A stretch of DNA of 64,000 nt from Klebsiella michiganensis. Its GTDB lineage: Bacteria; Pseudomonadota; Gammaproteobacteria; Enterobacterales; Enterobacteriaceae. A program made the position numbers and the translations under genes. Shown here one piece after another: positions 20,944 to 31,006 of the stretch; the first letter of the stretch is position 1; the number at the start of each line of letters is the position of its first letter. Location of the stretch: contig CP011077.1 of the NCBI GenBank assembly GCA_000963575.1, forward strand, positions 112,288-176,287, written 5' to 3'. Under the pieces are notes generated by a model that was not told where the DNA came from, did no database searches, and was given only the letters and a program-made list of their open reading frames with translations.

Positions 20944-24627
<3,684 letters not shown>

Positions 24628-24659
24628 CTCACAAACCTGTTATCTTTCCTTACAACTTA

Positions 24660-24690
24660 CAAGGCGCTCTGGGGGCGCCTTGTCTCTTTA
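24660..24690 (+). terminator. metH intrinsic terminator
   Basis: caaggcgctctgggggcgccttgtctcttt. Confidence 0.7.
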
Positions 24691-24771
24691 TTGAAGTTAA
24701 CCCCTTATACTGAAGGATGGTGGCTATTTTTGCCTCAGGAACCCTAAAAACCATAAGGAGAACAAGAATCC

Positions 24772-26403
24772 GTGCTGACCTTGTTACACCTGCTGTCCGC
24801 CGTTTCGCTGCTGGTCTGGGGGACGCACATTGTGCGTACCGGGATCATGCGCGTTTATGGTGCCAACCTGCGCAGCGTGCTTAGCCACAGCGTAGAAAAG
24901 AAACCGCTCGCCTTCTGCGCCGGGATCGGTGTTACCGCGCTGGTGCAGAGCAGTAATGCCACCACCATGCTGGTGACCTCGTTCGTTGCCCAGGATCTGG
25001 TGGCGCTCGCTCCTGCGCTGGTGATTGTGCTGGGGGCTGATGTGGGTACCGCGCTAATGGCGCGTGTCCTGACCTTCGATCTCTCATGGCTTTCGCCGCT
25101 GCTGATTTTCATCGGCGTTATCTTCTTCCTCAGCCGCAAGCAGACCCGTGCCGGGCAGCTTGGCCGCGTGGGCATTGGCCTGGGCCTGATTCTGCTGGCG
25201 CTTGAGCTGATTGTGGGGGCCGTCACGCCGATTACTCAGGCGAACGGCGTCCAGGTGATCTTCGCTTCCCTGACCGGCGATATCATGCTCGACGCGCTGA
25301 TTGGGGCGATGTTCGCCATCATCAGCTACTCCAGCCTCGCGGCGGTTCTGCTGACGGCCACGCTGACCTCCACCGGCGTAATTTCGTTTGATGTGGCGCT
25401 GTGCCTGGTTATCGGGGCCAACCTCGGCTCCGGGCTGCTGGCGATGATCAATAACAGCGCTGCCAATGCTGCGGCCCGCCGCGTGGCGCTGGGTAGCCTG
25501 CTGTTCAAGCTGGTGGGCAGTCTGCTGGTGCTGCCGTTCGTGCATGTCCTGGCCCGGCTGATGCACCACCTGCCGCTGCCGGAATCTGAGCTGGTTATCT
25601 ACTTCCACGTGTTCTACAACCTGATTCGTTGCCTGGTGATGGTGCCCTTTGCCGAACCGATGGCGCGCTTCTGCCGTCGGGTGATCGGCGAAGCGCCGGA
25701 AGTCGATGCCCGGATGAAGCCGAAGCACCTCGACCCGACGGCGCTGGATACTCCCGCGCTGGGGTTGTCCAACGCCGCGCGTGAAACCCTGAGAATGGGC
25801 GACGTGCTGGAGCAAATGCTGGAAACCTGGAGCAAGGTGATGCACGGCGAGCCGCGTCAGGAAAAAGAGCTGCGCAAGCTGGCCGACGACGTGGATGTGC
25901 TGTATACCGCCATCAAACTCTACCTCGCGCAGATGCCGAAGGAAGATCTGGCTGAAATGGAATCGCGTCGCTGGGCAGAAATCATCGAAATGTCGCTTAA
26001 CCTGGAGCAGGCGGCAGACATCATCGAACGTATGGGCAGCGAAGTGGCGGATAAATCTCTTGCCGCGCGCCGGGCTTTCTCGCCGGACGGCCTGACCGAG
26101 CTGGATAACCTGCTCCAGCAGCTGATCAGCAACCTGCAGCTGAGCCTGTCGGTGTTCTTCTCGAGCGACCTGGGCAGTGCCCGCCGGCTGCGCCGGAACA
26201 AACACCGCTTCCGCATCATGAACCGCCGCTACTCCCATGCCCACGTCGATCGCCTGCACCAGCAGAACGTGCAGAGCATCGAGACCAGCTCGCTGCACCT
26301 CGGGCTGCTGGGGGACATGAAACGCCTGAATTCGCTGTTCTGTTCCGTCGCCTACAGCGTGCTGGACCAGCCGGACGATGACGACGAGCGGGATGAGTAT
26401 TGA
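24772..26403 (+). CDS. yjbB: Na+/Pi-cotransporter family inner membrane protein YjbB
   Basis: 543 aa, near-identical to E. coli YjbB. Confidence 0.95.
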   Translation: MLTLLHLLSAVSLLVWGTHIVRTGIMRVYGANLRSVLSHSVEKKPLAFCAGIGVTALVQSSNATTMLVTSFVAQDLVALAPALVIVLGADVGTALMARVLTFDLSWLSPLLIFIGVIFFLSRKQTRAGQLGRVGIGLGLILLALELIVGAVTPITQANGVQVIFASLTGDIMLDALIGAMFAIISYSSLAAVLLTATLTSTGVISFDVALCLVIGANLGSGLLAMINNSAANAAARRVALGSLLFKLVGSLLVLPFVHVLARLMHHLPLPESELVIYFHVFYNLIRCLVMVPFAEPMARFCRRVIGEAPEVDARMKPKHLDPTALDTPALGLSNAARETLRMGDVLEQMLETWSKVMHGEPRQEKELRKLADDVDVLYTAIKLYLAQMPKEDLAEMESRRWAEIIEMSLNLEQAADIIERMGSEVADKSLAARRAFSPDGLTELDNLLQQLISNLQLSLSVFFSSDLGSARRLRRNKHRFRIMNRRYSHAHVDRLHQQNVQSIETSSLHLGLLGDMKRLNSLFCSVAYSVLDQPDDDDERDEY

Positions 26404-26455
26404 TCGTTAACCCGGCATCGCTCTATAATTGAACAATGTATGCGCATTGTTATGG
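26400..26455 (+). promoter_or_regulatory. putative ccdAB promoter (TTGATC-18-TATAAT) with an overlapping palindromic operator
   Basis: -10 TATAAT at 26424-26429; inverted repeat aacaatg-N6-cattgtt (26432-26451) with an internal atgcgcat palindrome, immediately upstream of the antitoxin start. Confidence 0.5.
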
Positions 26456-26463
26456 GGGTTAAT

Positions 26464-26703
26464 ATGCGTGTTGAAGGTGTAGCCGCCAAAAAATCGGTGA
26501 ATGTCACGCTCGCGCCGGAGATTCTGGATGAGGCCCGTAAGCTGAAGTTAAACATCTCGGCGGTACTGACCGAGGCATTAATCGAGAAATTTCGCGAAAA
26601 CGCTCGGGCAGAGTGGCTCAGGGACAATCAGGAAAAGATCGCCGTGCTTAATGAGTTTGTTGAGGAGCACGGCTCGTTCAGTGATTTTCAGAGGACCTTC
26701 TGA
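26464..26703 (+). CDS. ccdA: CcdA-family type II antitoxin
   Basis: …VNVTLAPEILDEARKLKLNISAVLTEALIEKFRENARAEWLRDNQEKIAVLNEFVEEHGSFSDFQRTF aligns with F-plasmid CcdA (…NISGLV…RAERWKAENQEGMAEVARFIEMNGSFADENRDW); ATGA stop/start overlap with the next gene. Confidence 0.85.
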   Translation: MRVEGVAAKKSVNVTLAPEILDEARKLKLNISAVLTEALIEKFRENARAEWLRDNQEKIAVLNEFVEEHGSFSDFQRTF

Positions 26704-27017
26704 TGGAACAGTTTCACGCCTACGAGAATACTGGCGCAGGGAAGAAAACGTATCCTTATCTCATCAATATGCAGCATCCCATTGCTGATGCCTTAAAGCA
26801 TGCCCTGGTCATTCCCGTTATTGAGCGCGAATTACTGGGGGCCATGCCTCCAGAAAAAATCTGCCCCATCGTGACTATTGAGGGGCGGCCTTGCGTGGCG
26901 ATGACTCACATGATGGCAGGTATTCCGCTTAAAGAACTCGGTGCTTCGGTCGCTGATTTGACGCATTACAGAGATGAGCTGTGTGGCGCCGTTGATTTTA
27001 TGATTCAGGGTTACTAA
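26703..27017 (+). CDS. ccdB: CcdB-family gyrase-poisoning toxin
   Basis: 104 aa; …VIPV…PIVTIEGRPCVAMTHMMAGIPLKELGASVADLTHYRDELCGAVDFMIQGY aligns with F CcdB (…VIPL…[50 protein letters not shown]). Confidence 0.8.
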   Translation: MEQFHAYENTGAGKKTYPYLINMQHPIADALKHALVIPVIERELLGAMPPEKICPIVTIEGRPCVAMTHMMAGIPLKELGASVADLTHYRDELCGAVDFMIQGY

Positions 27018-27082
27018 CAAGCCCATTTTACGGTTCGCAACGCCCTGCGGGTAAGGTATAGTCCTGGGTTTTCGGAGGAGCC

Positions 27083-27961
27083 ATGCTGACTAATTCATCT
27101 ATTCGTCTTAACAAATACATCAGCGAGAGCGGGATCTGCTCACGCCGTGACGCCGATCGCTACATCGAACAGGGCAACGTTTTTATTAACGGCAAGCGCG
27201 CCAAAATTGGCGATCAGGTTTTTGCCGGCGACAGCGTGAAGGTGAATGGTCAGCTCATTGAACCCCGCAACGAAGAAGACCTGGTGCTGATTGCGCTGAA
27301 TAAGCCGGTGGGGATTGTAAGCACCACGGAAGACGGCGAGAAAGACAACATCGTTGACTATGTGAACCACAGCAAGCGCGTGTTCCCGATTGGTCGGCTG
27401 GACAAAGATTCTCAGGGGCTGATTTTCCTCACCAACCACGGCGACCTGGTGAACAAAATCCTGCGTGCCGGGAACGATCATGAGAAAGAGTACGTGGTCA
27501 CGGTGAACAAGCCGGTTACCGACGAGTTTATCCGTGGTATGGGGGCAGGCGTGCCGATTCTGGGCACCGTCACCAAGAAATGCAAAGTCAAAAAAGAAGC
27601 CCCGTTTGCGTTTCGTATCACCCTGGTTCAGGGGCTAAACCGGCAGATCCGCCGCATGTGTGAACACTTTGGCTACGAAGTGACGAAGCTGGAGCGCACG
27701 CGCATCATGAACGTCAATCTCACCGGGATCCCGCTGGGGGAATGGCGTGACCTGACCGACGATGAACTTATTGAGCTGTTTAAGCTGATTGAGGATTCAT
27801 CCTCAGAGGCTAAACCGGCCAAAAAAGCGAAGCCAAAAGCGGCCAGCCCGGCGGTGAAAAAACCGTTGGTAAGCGGTCCGAAAAGCTCAGCAAAAACGCC
27901 CGCTGAGCTTGCCTCGCGTAAACGCTTTGCTTCTCCGGGCAGGAAGAAGAAAGGCCGTTAA
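27083..27961 (+). CDS. rluF: 23S rRNA pseudouridine(2604) synthase
   Basis: 292 aa, S4 domain plus RluA-type catalytic motif ([18 protein letters not shown]); Lys-rich C-terminal tail. Confidence 0.93.
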
Positions 27962-27962
27962 G

Positions 27963-28235
27963 CTAGCGTTTGCCTCGCGTGTGGTTATTGGCTGACCATG
28001 AATAGGTGGTCGTGGTATCCGGCTTTAATGCATTCTGTTTCTTCAGCTGGCGAGCTTTCTTAGCCGCCAGCGCACGTTCCGCCATCAGCTTGTCGATGTA
28101 CTCTTTTTTTACCTGATTAGTCTCTGAGTTGGTCAACGTACGACCGTGGGCAATGCGGGCGCGATCCAGCAGCGTTTTTAGCTCACGCTGTTCGCTTTCC
28201 GTCATGTCTTGCTGTGTCAGTCTGGCTGTAGCCAT
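27963..28235 (-). CDS. yjbD: DUF3811 family protein YjbD
   Basis: 90 aa, MATARLTQQDMTESEQRELKTLLDRARIAHGR… matches YjbD. Confidence 0.9.
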   Translation of the reverse strand: MATARLTQQDMTESEQRELKTLLDRARIAHGRTLTNSETNQVKKEYIDKLMAERALAAKKARQLKKQNALKPDTTTTYSWSANNHTRGKR

Positions 28236-28326
28236 CGTTGCAATCTCCCGGGAAAGGACGTTCAGTGTAAAACAAACCCACCGCGCCGACGAGACAAAAA
28301 AGCCTGCATCAGCAGGCTTTTAGCGA

Positions 28327-29259
28327 TTATTTTTTGTCGTCTGGCTTCGGCGTTATCGCTTTTCCAGACCAATAACCGGCCAGCAGAGAGCCCGAAAGAT
28401 TGTGCCAGACGGAGAACAACGCGCCAGGCAACGCTGCGAGCGGGGAGAAGTAGATTTTGCCCAGCGTGGCCGCAAGACCGGAGTTCTGCATCCCCACCTC
28501 GATGGCCAGCGTCCGGCAGGTGGATTCATCAAAGCCAAACAGCCGCCCGCCCCAGTAGCCGCCGAGCAGGCCAATGGTGTTATGCAGAATGACCGCGACA
28601 ATCACTACCAGACCAACGGAGGCGATGTGTGATGCCGAACCTGCCACAACCGCGCTAATGATGGCGAGAATGCAGAGCATGGAAAACGCGGGCAGCCACG
28701 GTTCCACCCGCTTCACCAGGCGTGGGAAAAGGTGATGCACAATCAGGCCAAGGCCAATCGGGATGATGACGATTTGCAGAATGCTGACCAGCATGCCCAT
28801 CACATCGACTTTAATGTCGGCATCTACATAGAGACGGGTGAGCAGCGGCGTGGCGAAAACGCCGACCAGCGTGGAAACCGATGAGATTGTCACGGAGAGC
28901 GCAACGTCGCCTTTCGCAAGATAAATCATGACGTTGGACGCCGTGCCGCTGGCTACGCTGCCGACCAGCACCATCCCGGCTGAAAGATCGGGCGGCATAT
29001 GGAATAGCATCGCCAGCAGCCACGCCGCCAGCGGCATCACCAGGTAATGCAGAAAAATCCCTGCGGCCACCGGTGCCGGGCGCGACAGCACGCGTTTAAA
29101 GTCTTCAAGTCGCAGATGCACGCCCATACCAAACATAATGAGCATCAGCAGCGTGCTGACCCACGGGCCAATCGGCGTAAAGGTTGAGGGGGTATAATAC
29201 GCAGCGACGGAGAGCAGCAGTGCCCAGAGCGGGAACAGCCGGGTTAGAGTGGCGAACAT
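28327..29259 (-). CDS. bile acid:sodium symporter (BASS) family transporter
   Basis: 310 aa polytopic membrane protein with BASS-family signature regions (…[11 protein letters not shown]…, …NSGLAATL…); no E. coli K-12 counterpart at this locus. Confidence 0.8.
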
Positions 29260-29428
29260 GTTATTTTCCTTGCGAATGCCTCGTCGCCAGACTGGCCACT
29301 ATGCGGTGGTAGGCCATGAACGAATCGGCGTTTGTGTTGTGTTGGCTTATTATTGCGGGCCAGGATCGAGCCTGGCCCTGGGTATTGTTTATCGCGGCAA
29401 GGAAGATTATTCAAACAAATTATGCGCT

Positions 29429-31006
29429 TTAGCCGTCGTGGACGCTCTCCCAGCTAAGGTTAAAACGCGCCAGATATTTACGCAGGCGGTCAGCATCATT
29501 AGGGTTTGCCTTTTTCAACCGCGAGACGGCAAAGAGTTCGCGTCCGGCCTCGGAAAGCGACTGGGTGCGGCGGCAAACCTCCAGCACGGTTTCAAGTTGG
29601 CGCCTATCGAACAAGTCTATATCTGGATTGAGCGTTGTTTCGGGAGAGGCGATTTGCCAGCTCTCTTTAAGCTGCGAGATCTCTTCTTGCACAGTGTCCA
29701 GCGCGATCCGCCCTTGCTCGGACAGGGTCGCCATACGTGATACGGACGAGCTGAGCTCGCGGAAGTTACCGCGCCATTGTGCCTGTGCAGAACAGGCAAA
29801 ATTCAGATAATGGTCCCTGGCCTCTTTATCAAAACGTATCTGCGTTTGTGCTTCGGTAGAGAAGCGTTGCAGTTCGTACTCTACGTTGGGCGCAATGTCT
29901 TCCCGCCGCTGCGCCAGACCCGGCAGGGCAAAACTCCACATATTAATCCTGGCATAGAGATCTTCGCGAAAGCGGCCCGCCGCAACCCACTGGCGCATAT
30001 CCCGGTGGGTGCCTGCAATTAGCTGGAAATCGCTCTGTACCTCTTTATCGGAGCCAAACGGAAAAAACGTTTTTTCTTCGATAGCTTTAAGCAGCATGGC
30101 TTGTTCGTCCAGCCCCAGCTCGGCGATTTCGTCCAAAAACAGTACGCCCCCGTCGGCCTCACGTAATAGCCCTGTACGTGCCGTCAACGCGCCGGTGAAC
30201 GCCCCTTTGACGTGCCCGAATAGCGTGGACATCGCGTTATCACCCCGCAGCGTGGCGCAGTTTACCGCCACAAACTTGCCGCCAACCTGGTGGCGAGCTT
30301 GCTTGAGCTGGTAAATGCGTTTTGCCAGGAAAGATTTGCCCGCCCCGGTAGGGCCGGTAAGTAACATGGGGGCCGCGGATCGGAGCGCAACCCGCTCAAT
30401 GCGATCGATAAGCTGGTTAAAGGTGGCATTTCGCGTGTCGATGCCCGCTTTCAGGAAAGAAATGGACCGTTGCTGCTCGCGCTGAAAGCGACTGGTTAAG
30501 GTGGTATAGCGACTTAAATCGAGGTCGATAACCGAGTAAGTTCCTGCGGGAGAGCCTTCTTCTGGGGTGCCTTTCTGGGCCGGGCTGGTTTGCAGCAAGC
30601 TGGCGGGGAGGTAGCGCGCCTCCGTTAAAAGAAACCAGCAAATTTGTGCGACATGCGTTCCGGTGGTGATATGCACCAAATACTCTTCATTTTCGGTATC
30701 GAAATCGTACCGGGTAGCAAAATCAAGAAAGGCGGCGTACACCTCTTCAAAGTCCCACGGATCTTTGATTGTGACCTGATGCCTGCGTACCTCCGTATCG
30801 GGCGAAACACGCGCGATATCGTCTGATAACTGCTCCGTCATGCCGGAATCTCTCGGCTGATAAAGCAGCTCGAGCCGGTCAACGGGGAAGTCCGGCTGCT
30901 GGCAAAGGCCAACCGTTGGTCGCCATTTATGGAAACGATTTGCCCGCTTGCCGCGTTTATCCAGCACCGTGCCCAGCACGCCAATCACCACACGCCGTTT
31001 TTTCAT
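29429..31006 (-). CDS. rtcR: sigma-54-dependent transcriptional activator RtcR (N-terminal CARF domain, AAA+ domain with GAFTGA, C-terminal HTH)
   Basis: 525 aa; Walker A GPTGAGKS, GAFTGA loop (GHVKGAFTGA), overall match to RtcR including the N-terminal CARF-like region; divergent from an rtcB-containing operon. Confidence 0.93.
   Translation of the reverse strand: MKKRRVVIGVLGTVLDKRGKRANRFHKWRPTVGLCQQPDFPVDRLELLYQPRDSGMTEQLSDDIARVSPDTEVRRHQVTIKDPWDFEEVYAAFLDFATRYDFDTENEEYLVHITTGTHVAQICWFLLTEARYLPASLLQTSPAQKGTPEEGSPAGTYSVIDLDLSRYTTLTSRFQREQQRSISFLKAGIDTRNATFNQLIDRIERVALRSAAPMLLTGPTGAGKSFLAKRIYQLKQARHQVGGKFVAVNCATLRGDNAMSTLFGHVKGAFTGALTARTGLLREADGGVLFLDEIAELGLDEQAMLLKAIEEKTFFPFGSDKEVQSDFQLIAGTHRDMRQWVAAGRFREDLYARINMWSFALPGLAQRREDIAPNVEYELQRFSTEAQTQIRFDKEARDHYLNFACSAQAQWRGNFRELSSSVSRMATLSEQGRIALDTVQEEISQLKESWQIASPETTLNPDIDLFDRRQLETVLEVCRRTQSLSEAGRELFAVSRLKKANPNDADRLRKYLARFNLSWESVHDG

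Follow-up and report, generated by a model that had tools for sequence, protein, structure and literature searches.

A CcdA/CcdB-family gene pair between yjbB and rluF on the chromosome of Cedecea neteri

The ccd genes and their products

The subject of this report is a pair of genes of the CcdA antitoxin and CcdB toxin families located in a 64,000-nucleotide (nt) stretch of bacterial DNA (the window; contig CP011077.1 of assembly GCA_000963575.1, positions 112,288 to 176,287 of the forward strand, deposited as Klebsiella michiganensis). Exact-sequence look-ups assigned the window to Cedecea neteri (e.g., CP139439.1). Between window positions 24772 and 27961, the genes yjbB, ccdA, ccdB, and rluF follow one another on the plus strand (Table 1), and the two-gene pair that a preliminary description of this DNA had placed between yjbB and rluF was recovered as two co-oriented open reading frames (ORFs) with CcdA and CcdB Pfam matches. 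ccdA lies directly upstream of ccdB in the same orientation, an arrangement common to all orthologous loci. The two genes share one nucleotide, the ccdA stop TGA (26701 to 26703) and the ccdB start ATG (26703 to 26705) together reading TGATG, and not the four nucleotides of the ATGA overlap given previously.

Table 1. Coordinates of genes and other features at the ccdAB locus (window numbering)
Feature	Position	Strand	Basis or remark
yjbB, left flank	24772..26403	+	Na/Pi cotransporter-PhoU family; Pfam Na_Pi_cotrans E=3.8e-42, PhoU E=4.3e-10
Recombination tract shared with C. neteri NBRC 105707	26340..27260		yjbB 3' end, cassette, rluF 5' end
Predicted sigma-70 promoter of ccdAB, TTGATC-18-TATAAT	26400..26429	+	consensus scan, 10/12 matches; predicted function
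Cassette as insertion/deletion unit	26404..27032		629 bp; absent from the empty site of C. davisae
Inverted repeat AACAATG-N6-CATTGTT	26432-26438 / 26445-26451		perfect 7-bp arms; over predicted transcription start
ATGCGCAT, perfect 8-bp palindrome inside the 7-bp repeat	26440..26447		candidate operator core
ccdA Shine-Dalgarno sequence GGGGG	26454..26458	+	read from sequence; 5 nt before ATG 26464
ccdA, 79 aa	26464..26703	+	Pfam PF07362 E=1.2e-23
ccdB, 104 aa	26703..27017	+	Pfam PF01845 E=1.4e-27; Shine-Dalgarno GAGGA at 26691-26695
Promoter-like site of rluF itself, TTCGCA-17-TATAGT	27034..27062	+	consensus scan; downstream of cassette
rluF, right flank	27083..27961	+	23S rRNA pseudouridine 2604 synthase; Pfam S4 and PseudoU_synth_2

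Both products matched their family profiles over the entire profile length. CcdA reached 83.7 bits against PF07362 (cut-off, 22.4 bits; profile positions 1 to 71 of 71), and CcdB reached 96.3 bits against PF01845 (cut-off, 28.6 bits; positions 1 to 101 of 101). Against the NCBIfam models of the F-type equivalogs (the pair NF010262 and NF010264), the scores were 30.1 bits for CcdA with a cut-off of 100 bits and 47.6 bits for CcdB with a cut-off of 147 bits, and the proteins are thus members of the two families rather than F-type equivalogs. Among structures in the PDB, phmmer matched CcdB to Vibrio fischeri CcdB with E=1.2e-17 and to F-plasmid CcdB with E=3.8e-8, while CcdA matched F CcdA with E=0.0035 and approximately 50% identity over the C-terminal 30 residues. 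The convincing alignment with the F-plasmid proteins that had been described before is therefore borne out only moderately. CcdA is predicted to bind DNA through a ribbon-helix-helix region at its N terminus and CcdB through a region at its C terminus; in the latter, approximately 15 of 30 residues are the same as in F CcdA(37-72) and the motif W..NQE....F.E..GSF.D of this segment is kept, so that the CcdB-binding segment is conserved. The exact CcdA protein is already present at NCBI as 'CcdA family antitoxin [Cedecea neteri]', assigned to a type II toxin-antitoxin (TA) system, and CcdB is deposited as 'CcdB family protein.' Databases also hold an 87-residue version of CcdA starting at position 26440. 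Because the GGGGG Shine-Dalgarno sequence is located 5 nt upstream of ATG 26464, the latter is the most likely start codon, giving 79 residues, and the N-terminal extension from ATG 26440 was rejected, as the G-rich element serves ATG 26464 and the corresponding upstream ATG of a related cassette in another genome is out of frame.

The CcdB model, which was built with AlphaFold2 on ten clade members, has a predicted local distance difference test (pLDDT) value of 87 and features a helix at residues 87 to 102. In a Foldseek comparison, its top PDB match was 4elz_C, i.e., V. fischeri CcdB (CcdBVfi) in complex with GyrA14, with a template modeling (TM) score of 0.86, followed by F CcdB at 0.85, whereas MazF toxins reached just 0.6 to 0.7; the model thus displays an SH3-like barrel of the CcdB/MazF type and, at the C terminus, a long helix. 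When 1.84 billion representative sequences were searched, 583 relatives of CcdB were retrieved with E<=1e-3, of which no more than 3 reached E<=1e-30. CcdB belongs to a small, distinct enterobacterial clade whose next relatives are at most 42% identical and which is nearest to the V. fischeri ('chromosomal') type of CcdB. In the cluster formed at 90% identity, all members (11/11) have 104 residues.

The C terminus of CcdB reads ...DFMIQGY and, as stated in the preliminary description, differs in sequence from the F tail: W99 of F CcdB is replaced by Q102 and I101 by Y104, whereas G100 is kept as G103. F CcdB contacts gyrase through Trp99 (PMC5086665, PMC1635281), and its three C-terminal residues, including Trp99 and Ile101, are critical to toxicity (PMC1635281). 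Together with the small size and distinctness of the clade (3 of 583 relatives at E<=1e-30, the others at most 42% identical), the exchange of these residues for Gln and Tyr could mean that the target has changed or that the affinity for gyrase is markedly altered, but this reading is highly improbable. The tail of V. fischeri CcdB, ...DFLITGI, lacks Trp99 as well, and the protein nevertheless binds GyrA14 of V. fischeri and of an enterobacterium (4ELZ, 4ELY; PMC5086665), with Asp99 forming a hydrogen bond to GyrA Arg462 (PMC5086665). Asp98 of Cedecea CcdB, which is Glu in some clade members, aligns with this Asp99, and the model superposes on the gyrase-bound V. fischeri toxin. Furthermore, the pattern (D/E)F(L/M)x(N/Q)GY is common to the whole clade, with F99, G103 (the equivalent of F Gly100), and Y104 being invariant, and the gyrase-contact helix is the most conserved portion of the clade alignment. 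Since the tail resembles that of V. fischeri and Asp98 aligns with Asp99, we consider DFMIQGY to be probably a known alternative solution for gyrase binding; the earlier suggestion of another target is not upheld, the tail probably being no evidence of a new one, and gyrase is the putative target. This CcdB clade may have a gyrase-contact chemistry distinct from both the F and the V. fischeri types.

The flanking genes are readily identified, YjbB being 85% identical to annotated E. coli YjbB and rluF 80% identical to annotated E. coli rluF at the nucleotide level. The promoter-like sequence of rluF is also found in the empty site of C. davisae described below. Two minus-strand ORFs (26352 to 26627 and 26832 to 27026) overlap the ccd genes and were treated as spurious. 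An Rfam scan at E<=1 detected no RNA family in positions 24500 to 29500, and no terminator-like site was found within positions 26300 to 27150. A second presence/absence polymorphism occurs at most 3 kb from the ccd genes: in the window strain, an SBF-family symporter gene is separated from lysC by rtcR, a band-7 gene, and rtcB (window 29429 to 31006 and downstream), whereas in the C. neteri type strain the symporter gene is directly followed by lysC (locus L001, 8557 to 8650, versus L003, 8557 to 12315; L numbers denote our retrieved loci). In the NCTC assembly of C. neteri, UAVU01000003.1 (L002, 240 to 5701), metH and yjbB are each broken into two ORFs; both are intact in BCTL01000024.1, an assembly of the identical strain, and the split genes are probably due to sequencing frameshifts and are not pseudogenes.

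Predicted promoter and candidate operator of ccdAB

The putative sigma-70 promoter that had been reported upstream of the pair was found again by consensus scan, and the yjbB stop codon TGA (26401 to 26403) falls within its -35 hexamer. The 7-bp inverted repeat next to it is perfect, as described before, but it lies just past the -10 hexamer and overlaps neither of the two hexamers. By itself, a repeat of this kind is not above chance expectation, as three perfect inverted repeats of 7 to 8 nt occur within 721 bp. The repeat is identical in 11 of 12 loci of the C. neteri complex compared (10 fetched loci and the window) as well as in C. lapagei and Cedecea sp.; strain TMH.L2 has AATAATG...CATTACA instead, in which one pair has changed in a compensatory manner and two pairs are lost, and in the Atlantibacter and Enterobacter cassettes it is not conserved. 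With conservation confined to Cedecea and partial erosion even there, the role of likely operator proposed for the 7-bp repeat in the preliminary description is not supported. A function as an RNA hairpin in transcripts from the ccd promoter is unlikely too, since its left arm would lie at or upstream of the predicted +1 position.

A better candidate emerged from an alignment of 95 nt around the ccdA start in nine cassettes of five lineages, comprising four Cedecea lineages, Atlantibacter, two Enterobacter lineages, the E. vonholyi remnant, and a cassette at another locus in a metagenome-assembled genome (MAG). Four elements are invariant and in register in all nine: the -10 sequence TAnnnT, the pentanucleotide ATGCG, the Shine-Dalgarno sequence GGGG, and the ATG start codon. 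In each cassette, TAnnnT sits 10 nt upstream of ATGCGCAT, and a related half-site, ATGCGT, occurs at positions 26464 to 26469 (ATGCGY at the ccdA start codon). In the MAG cassette, the ATG equivalent to position 26440 lies 25 nt, not 24 nt, from the main start and its reading frame runs into a stop; because this ATG is out of frame with ccdA, the conservation of ATGCG is not due to coding. On the basis of this alignment and by analogy with the F operator, ATGCGCAT together with the ATGCGY half-site may be regarded as the best candidate for the operator core. In the F system, the affinity of CcdA for the short GTATAC palindromes is low, and the operon is repressed only if CcdB bridges CcdA in multivalent binding along 113 bp of DNA (PMC5389731). 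As the spacing from yjbB to ccdA is only approximately 60 bp, the regulatory architecture of the present pair must differ from that of F.

A further perfect 7-nt inverted repeat, TTAACCC/GGGTTAA (26407 to 26413 and 26456 to 26462), brackets the promoter and overlaps the ccdA Shine-Dalgarno sequence. It could hide the ccdA ribosome-binding site in read-through transcripts from yjbB. Its conservation is weak, the left arm being TCAACCC in TMH.L2 and C. lapagei.

Occupancy of the yjbB-rluF interval and exchange of the cassette

For comparison of the locus, the rluF neighborhoods of 80 species representatives were retrieved and their intervals classified by tblastn, ORFs, and Pfam; in 30 of these neighborhoods, yjbB preceded rluF by at most 4 kb, and the classification covers these 30. 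The contents of the interval proved to be variable. ccdAB in the same orientation as in the window was found in the C. neteri complex, Atlantibacter, Enterobacter sp. ECC-175, and an uncultured Enterobacter, with 59 to 66% CcdB identity to the window in the latter three, and C. lapagei and Cedecea sp. were separately found to carry it at this locus as well. Other loci carry a Gp49/HigB-like toxin with an HI1420-type antidote on the minus strand (Enterobacter and Leclercia; in Dryocola and Buttiauxella, the antidote ORF alone was identified), a Gp49 and HTH_37 pair on the plus strand (Pseudenterobacter, E. asburiae, and Lelliottia), or RelB with YafQ (Enterobacter sp. kpr-6). Empty intervals of 72 to 186 bp occur in Cedecea davisae (125 bp), an uncultured Cedecea (124 bp), Buttiauxella, Kosakonia, Scandinavium, Huaxiibacter, Pseudescherichia, and a Citrobacter. 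Remnants of ccd genes were seen in two species: Enterobacter vonholyi has a truncated ccdA and a 40-residue ccdB stub at the same locus (L081, 3609 to 3943), and Escherichia sp. E1V33 has a 41-residue ccdA fragment between pepE and rluF (L077, 3775 to 3897). The latter had no match in 5,426 complete E. coli genomes and is consequently not a general feature of E. coli.

As stated in the preliminary description, the E. coli interval contains pepE on the opposite strand, the order being yjbB-pepE(-)-rluF. Among the 80 loci fetched, pepE was present at this site in those of Escherichia, Intestinirhabdus, and Kluyvera only, in Kluyvera 2.2 kb upstream of rluF. The claim that the cassette replaced pepE is not sustained by these data. 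An ancestral order yjbB-pepE-rluF from which the cassette displaced pepE in the Cedecea lineage would fit the minus-strand pepE in the intervals of E. coli, Escherichia sp. E1V33, Kluyvera, and Intestinirhabdus and the lack of any pepE within the 64-kb window. Such a displacement is very unlikely, however, as the short spacers of C. davisae, whose RluF is 96% identical, and of the uncultured Cedecea are empty, as are the other short spacers listed above, as tblastn at E<=1e-3 turned up no fragment of pepE in the Cedecea intervals, and as the ccdA remnant of E1V33 adjoins pepE, so that the two are not alternatives. Judged by these comparisons, pepE was probably not replaced. Alignment of window positions 26380 to 27090 with the C. 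davisae locus (L021, 3850 to 4010) showed that homology ends right after the yjbB stop codon and restarts at GTTCGCAACGCCCTGCGGGTAAGGTATAG, the 629-bp C. neteri segment standing in place of approximately 75 bp of C. davisae spacer with a hairpin. The most parsimonious reading of the alignments would be insertion of the cassette into, or its allelic replacement of, an empty spacer within a TA hotspot.

We see an even chance that the yjbB-rluF spacer is a cross-genus 'cassette slot' of the Enterobacteriaceae which is occupied by at least four unrelated type II TA families and in which pepE and a sorbose-type phosphotransferase system (PTS) island also alternate, with cassettes apparently being swapped as alleles. 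For ccdAB, such swapping by recombination in the flanking core genes was observed directly, the Cedecea lineages concerned being approximately 92% identical. The full-text PubMed Central and bioRxiv literature searched contained nothing on Cedecea ccd or on a TA hotspot between yjbB and rluF.

Two further observations concern this interval. First, an island of sorbose-type PTS genes (sor; EIIA-man, EIIB-sorb, EIIC, EIID, and an alcohol dehydrogenase [ADH]) is located between ccdB and rluF in Cedecea sp. (L100 to L103, 4554 to 8315) and immediately precedes rluF in Cedecea colo, Shigella flexneri, E. ruysiae, and E. whittamii (L034, L069, L073, and L079, 1 to 3750). Its EIIC is 93 to 95% identical across these genera; because this exceeds the RluF identity of approximately 84%, transfer of the island between genera into the same slot is suggested. 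Second, the conserved motif CTGAAAGCGCCTCGCAAA adjoins the cassette in Enterobacter-group genomes, whatever the TA family. Plus-strand cassettes have it on their left side (immediately past the yjbB stop in L036, L081, L058, L066, and L088), and minus-strand cassettes have it on their right side (approximately 70 nt before rluF in L063 and L055). It could mark the boundary of an exchange unit, act as a regulatory site, or represent an RNA element.

The recombination tract was recognized by comparison with the C. neteri type strain. Over the tract, the two sequences differ at 10 of 921 nt (1.1%), whereas outside it they differ at 273 of 3680 nt (7.4%), the tract thus being approximately 99% and the flanks approximately 92% identical (flank dS, the synonymous divergence, 0.28 to 0.37); the binomial P value is 2e-19, for a tract that was picked after inspection. 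The tract holds a mismatch-free run of 410 nt, and none of the 312 nt of ccdB differs. A different pattern is displayed by Cedecea sp., in which the promoter and the 5' part of ccdA are nearly identical to the window whereas the 3' part of ccdA and the whole of ccdB are approximately 10% diverged, and hence a mosaic breakpoint lies inside ccdA. The GC content of the cassette is 49 to 51%, versus 59 to 63% for yjbB. Overall, the alignments indicate that homologous recombination within the core genes on either side carries the cassette from one Cedecea lineage to another. Its distribution is that of an accessory, mobile element, with presence and absence among Cedecea species, the same site in other genera, and another locus in the MAG. 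Ubiquity and vertical inheritance of the pair in the genus, which the preliminary description had named as counterevidence to its reading, apply only by half: C. lapagei, Cedecea sp., and the C. neteri complex have the pair at this locus, as do Atlantibacter and some Enterobacter, but it is absent from C. davisae, and recombinational exchange takes the place of simple vertical descent. A second stretch of 98 to 99% identity to the type strain, over yjbD (window 28002 to 28226; flanks approximately 91 to 95%), could be another recombination tract or could reflect strong constraint on a small gene.

The closest CcdB outside Cedecea, with 71% identity, is encoded in an Enterobacteriaceae MAG (L015, 4744 to 5315; L016, 1379 to 1938), where the cassette is flanked by a Dus-family gene on one side and a DUF3644 gene on the other, in the vicinity of fur and fbp. 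As this cassette shares the promoter, ATGCG, and Shine-Dalgarno architecture, the mobile unit takes in the control region. Among 72,556 plasmids, tblastn gave no hit of at least 60% identity; the best relative, 56% identical, resides on a 425-kb replicon of C. freundii, followed by Vibrio plasmids at approximately 41%. A plasmid origin of the cassette is unlikely, given that no close donor was found.

Among five Cedecea lineages, the ratio of nonsynonymous to synonymous divergence (dN/dS) is approximately 0.07 to 0.1 for ccdB, 0.1 to 0.4 for ccdA, and approximately 0.01 to 0.02 for the flanks. Because dN/dS is low and the cluster members are full length, the ccd genes are kept by selection. 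These values bear on the possibility that the pair is a decaying or attenuated chromosomal relic with intact ORFs but a mostly inactive toxin, as is reported of many ccdO157 alleles, in which the antitoxin alone matters, e.g., for anti-addiction against plasmid-borne CcdB. The remnant cassettes of E. vonholyi and Escherichia sp. E1V33 and the absence of ccdAB from C. davisae would be in line with this, as would the attenuation and cross-neutralization described for ccdO157 (PMC10886550) and structure 3TCJ, according to which F CcdA is able to bind V. fischeri-type CcdB. Nevertheless, we consider a relic improbable: purifying selection is stronger on ccdB than on ccdA, ccdB is full length in every member examined, and the gyrase-contact helix is the best-conserved part of the alignment.

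Proposed mode of action and comparison with known ccd systems

Taken together, the pair is very likely an intact and apparently expressed type II TA module of the CcdA/CcdB family in the C. neteri chromosome, which has a predicted promoter of its own, belongs to the clade closest to V. fischeri CcdB, and is an accessory hotspot element spread by recombination. By analogy with homologous systems, each step of its action can be sketched as follows. The sigma-70 promoter abutting the yjbB stop codon would give rise to a bicistronic ccdA-ccdB mRNA, and the TGATG overlap would couple translation of the two genes. CcdA dimers would bind short palindromes near the transcription start via their ribbon-helix-helix N termini, ATGCGCAT being the best candidate, and CcdB dimers would bridge CcdA, resulting in ratio-dependent repression of the operon. 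The presumably disordered C terminus of CcdA would wrap around CcdB and neutralize it. If CcdA is degraded and not replenished, free CcdB dimers would bind the GyrA dimer by the C-terminal helix (residues 87 to 102), with Asp98 facing GyrA Arg462, and trap the gyrase cleavage complex. The evolutionary behavior of the cassette is more in keeping with a selfish or anti-addiction module than with a housekeeping role specific to one lineage.

Several points weigh against this assignment. Both proteins score far below the equivalog cut-offs, and functional equivalence to the F system is unproven by sequence; toxicity, gyrase poisoning, lability of CcdA, and autoregulation are all attributed to the pair from its homologs. 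Trp99 and Ile101 of F CcdB are Gln102 and Tyr104 in the Cedecea toxin, and the control region of approximately 60 bp contrasts with the 113-bp, 8-site operator of F (PMC5389731). The low divergence of the recombination tract might partly reflect constraint, though synonymous sites are identical too. Finally, chromosomal ccd loci can carry attenuated toxins, ccdO157 being an example (cited in PMC10886550).

The Cedecea pair is an ordinary chromosomal CcdAB module, already correctly labeled by annotation pipelines. What it adds is a third sequence type of CcdB, the last residues of which are neither F-like nor Vibrio-like and which is usable to probe the tolerance of gyrase recognition. The more useful result concerns the context, i.e., the same slot being occupied by different TA families in different enterobacterial genera. 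Recombination footprint and purifying selection in Cedecea bear on the question of why chromosomal TA modules persist, be it by selfish spread, anti-addiction, or benefit to the host, and the cassette slot, if true, would be a natural system in which to measure selfish spread and anti-addiction competition among TA modules.

Of the characterized systems, ccdAB of V. fischeri (2KMT, 3JSC, 4ELZ, 4ELY, and 3TCJ) is the most similar. The CcdB proteins align end to end with approximately 36 to 40% identity and give the best fold match, both have approximately 104 to 105 residues, lack a Trp at the position of F residue 99, and keep the Asp that contacts GyrA Arg462, and both systems are chromosomal rather than borne on the F plasmid. 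They differ at the end of CcdB, where V. fischeri has GI and Thr and Cedecea has GY and Gln or Asn, and in the first gyrase-contact loop (DLLDN in V. fischeri, PIADA in Cedecea). The V. fischeri genes lie in a superintegron, whereas the Cedecea pair is located between the core genes yjbB and rluF, and the Cedecea CcdB clade is limited to a few Enterobacteriaceae.

With ccdAB of the F plasmid (CcdB, 1VUB and 1X75; CcdA, 2ADL), the pair shares Pfam families, gene order, translational coupling, and fold, as well as the ribbon-helix-helix N terminus and C-terminal CcdB-binding motif of CcdA and short palindromes at the promoter. However, CcdB identity is only 28 to 30%, W99-G100-I101 of F is replaced by Q-G-Y, and the shorter Cedecea control region is without a GTATAC palindrome (PMC5389731 for F). 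A third point of reference is provided by the chromosomal ccd pairs of E. coli O157:H7 (ccdO157) and Dickeya dadantii 3937 (ccdEch). ccdO157 lies between folA and apaH, and both pairs occupy a locus other than yjbB-rluF and belong to another clade of the family. They resemble the Cedecea pair (Mine et al. 2009 and Saavedra De Bast et al. 2008, as cited in PMC10886550) in being placed in a spacer between core genes, in their patchy distribution with decayed copies in relatives, and in their candidate anti-addiction role. The Cedecea pair differs from them in showing no sign of toxin decay within Cedecea and in the evidence of allelic spread by flanking recombination.

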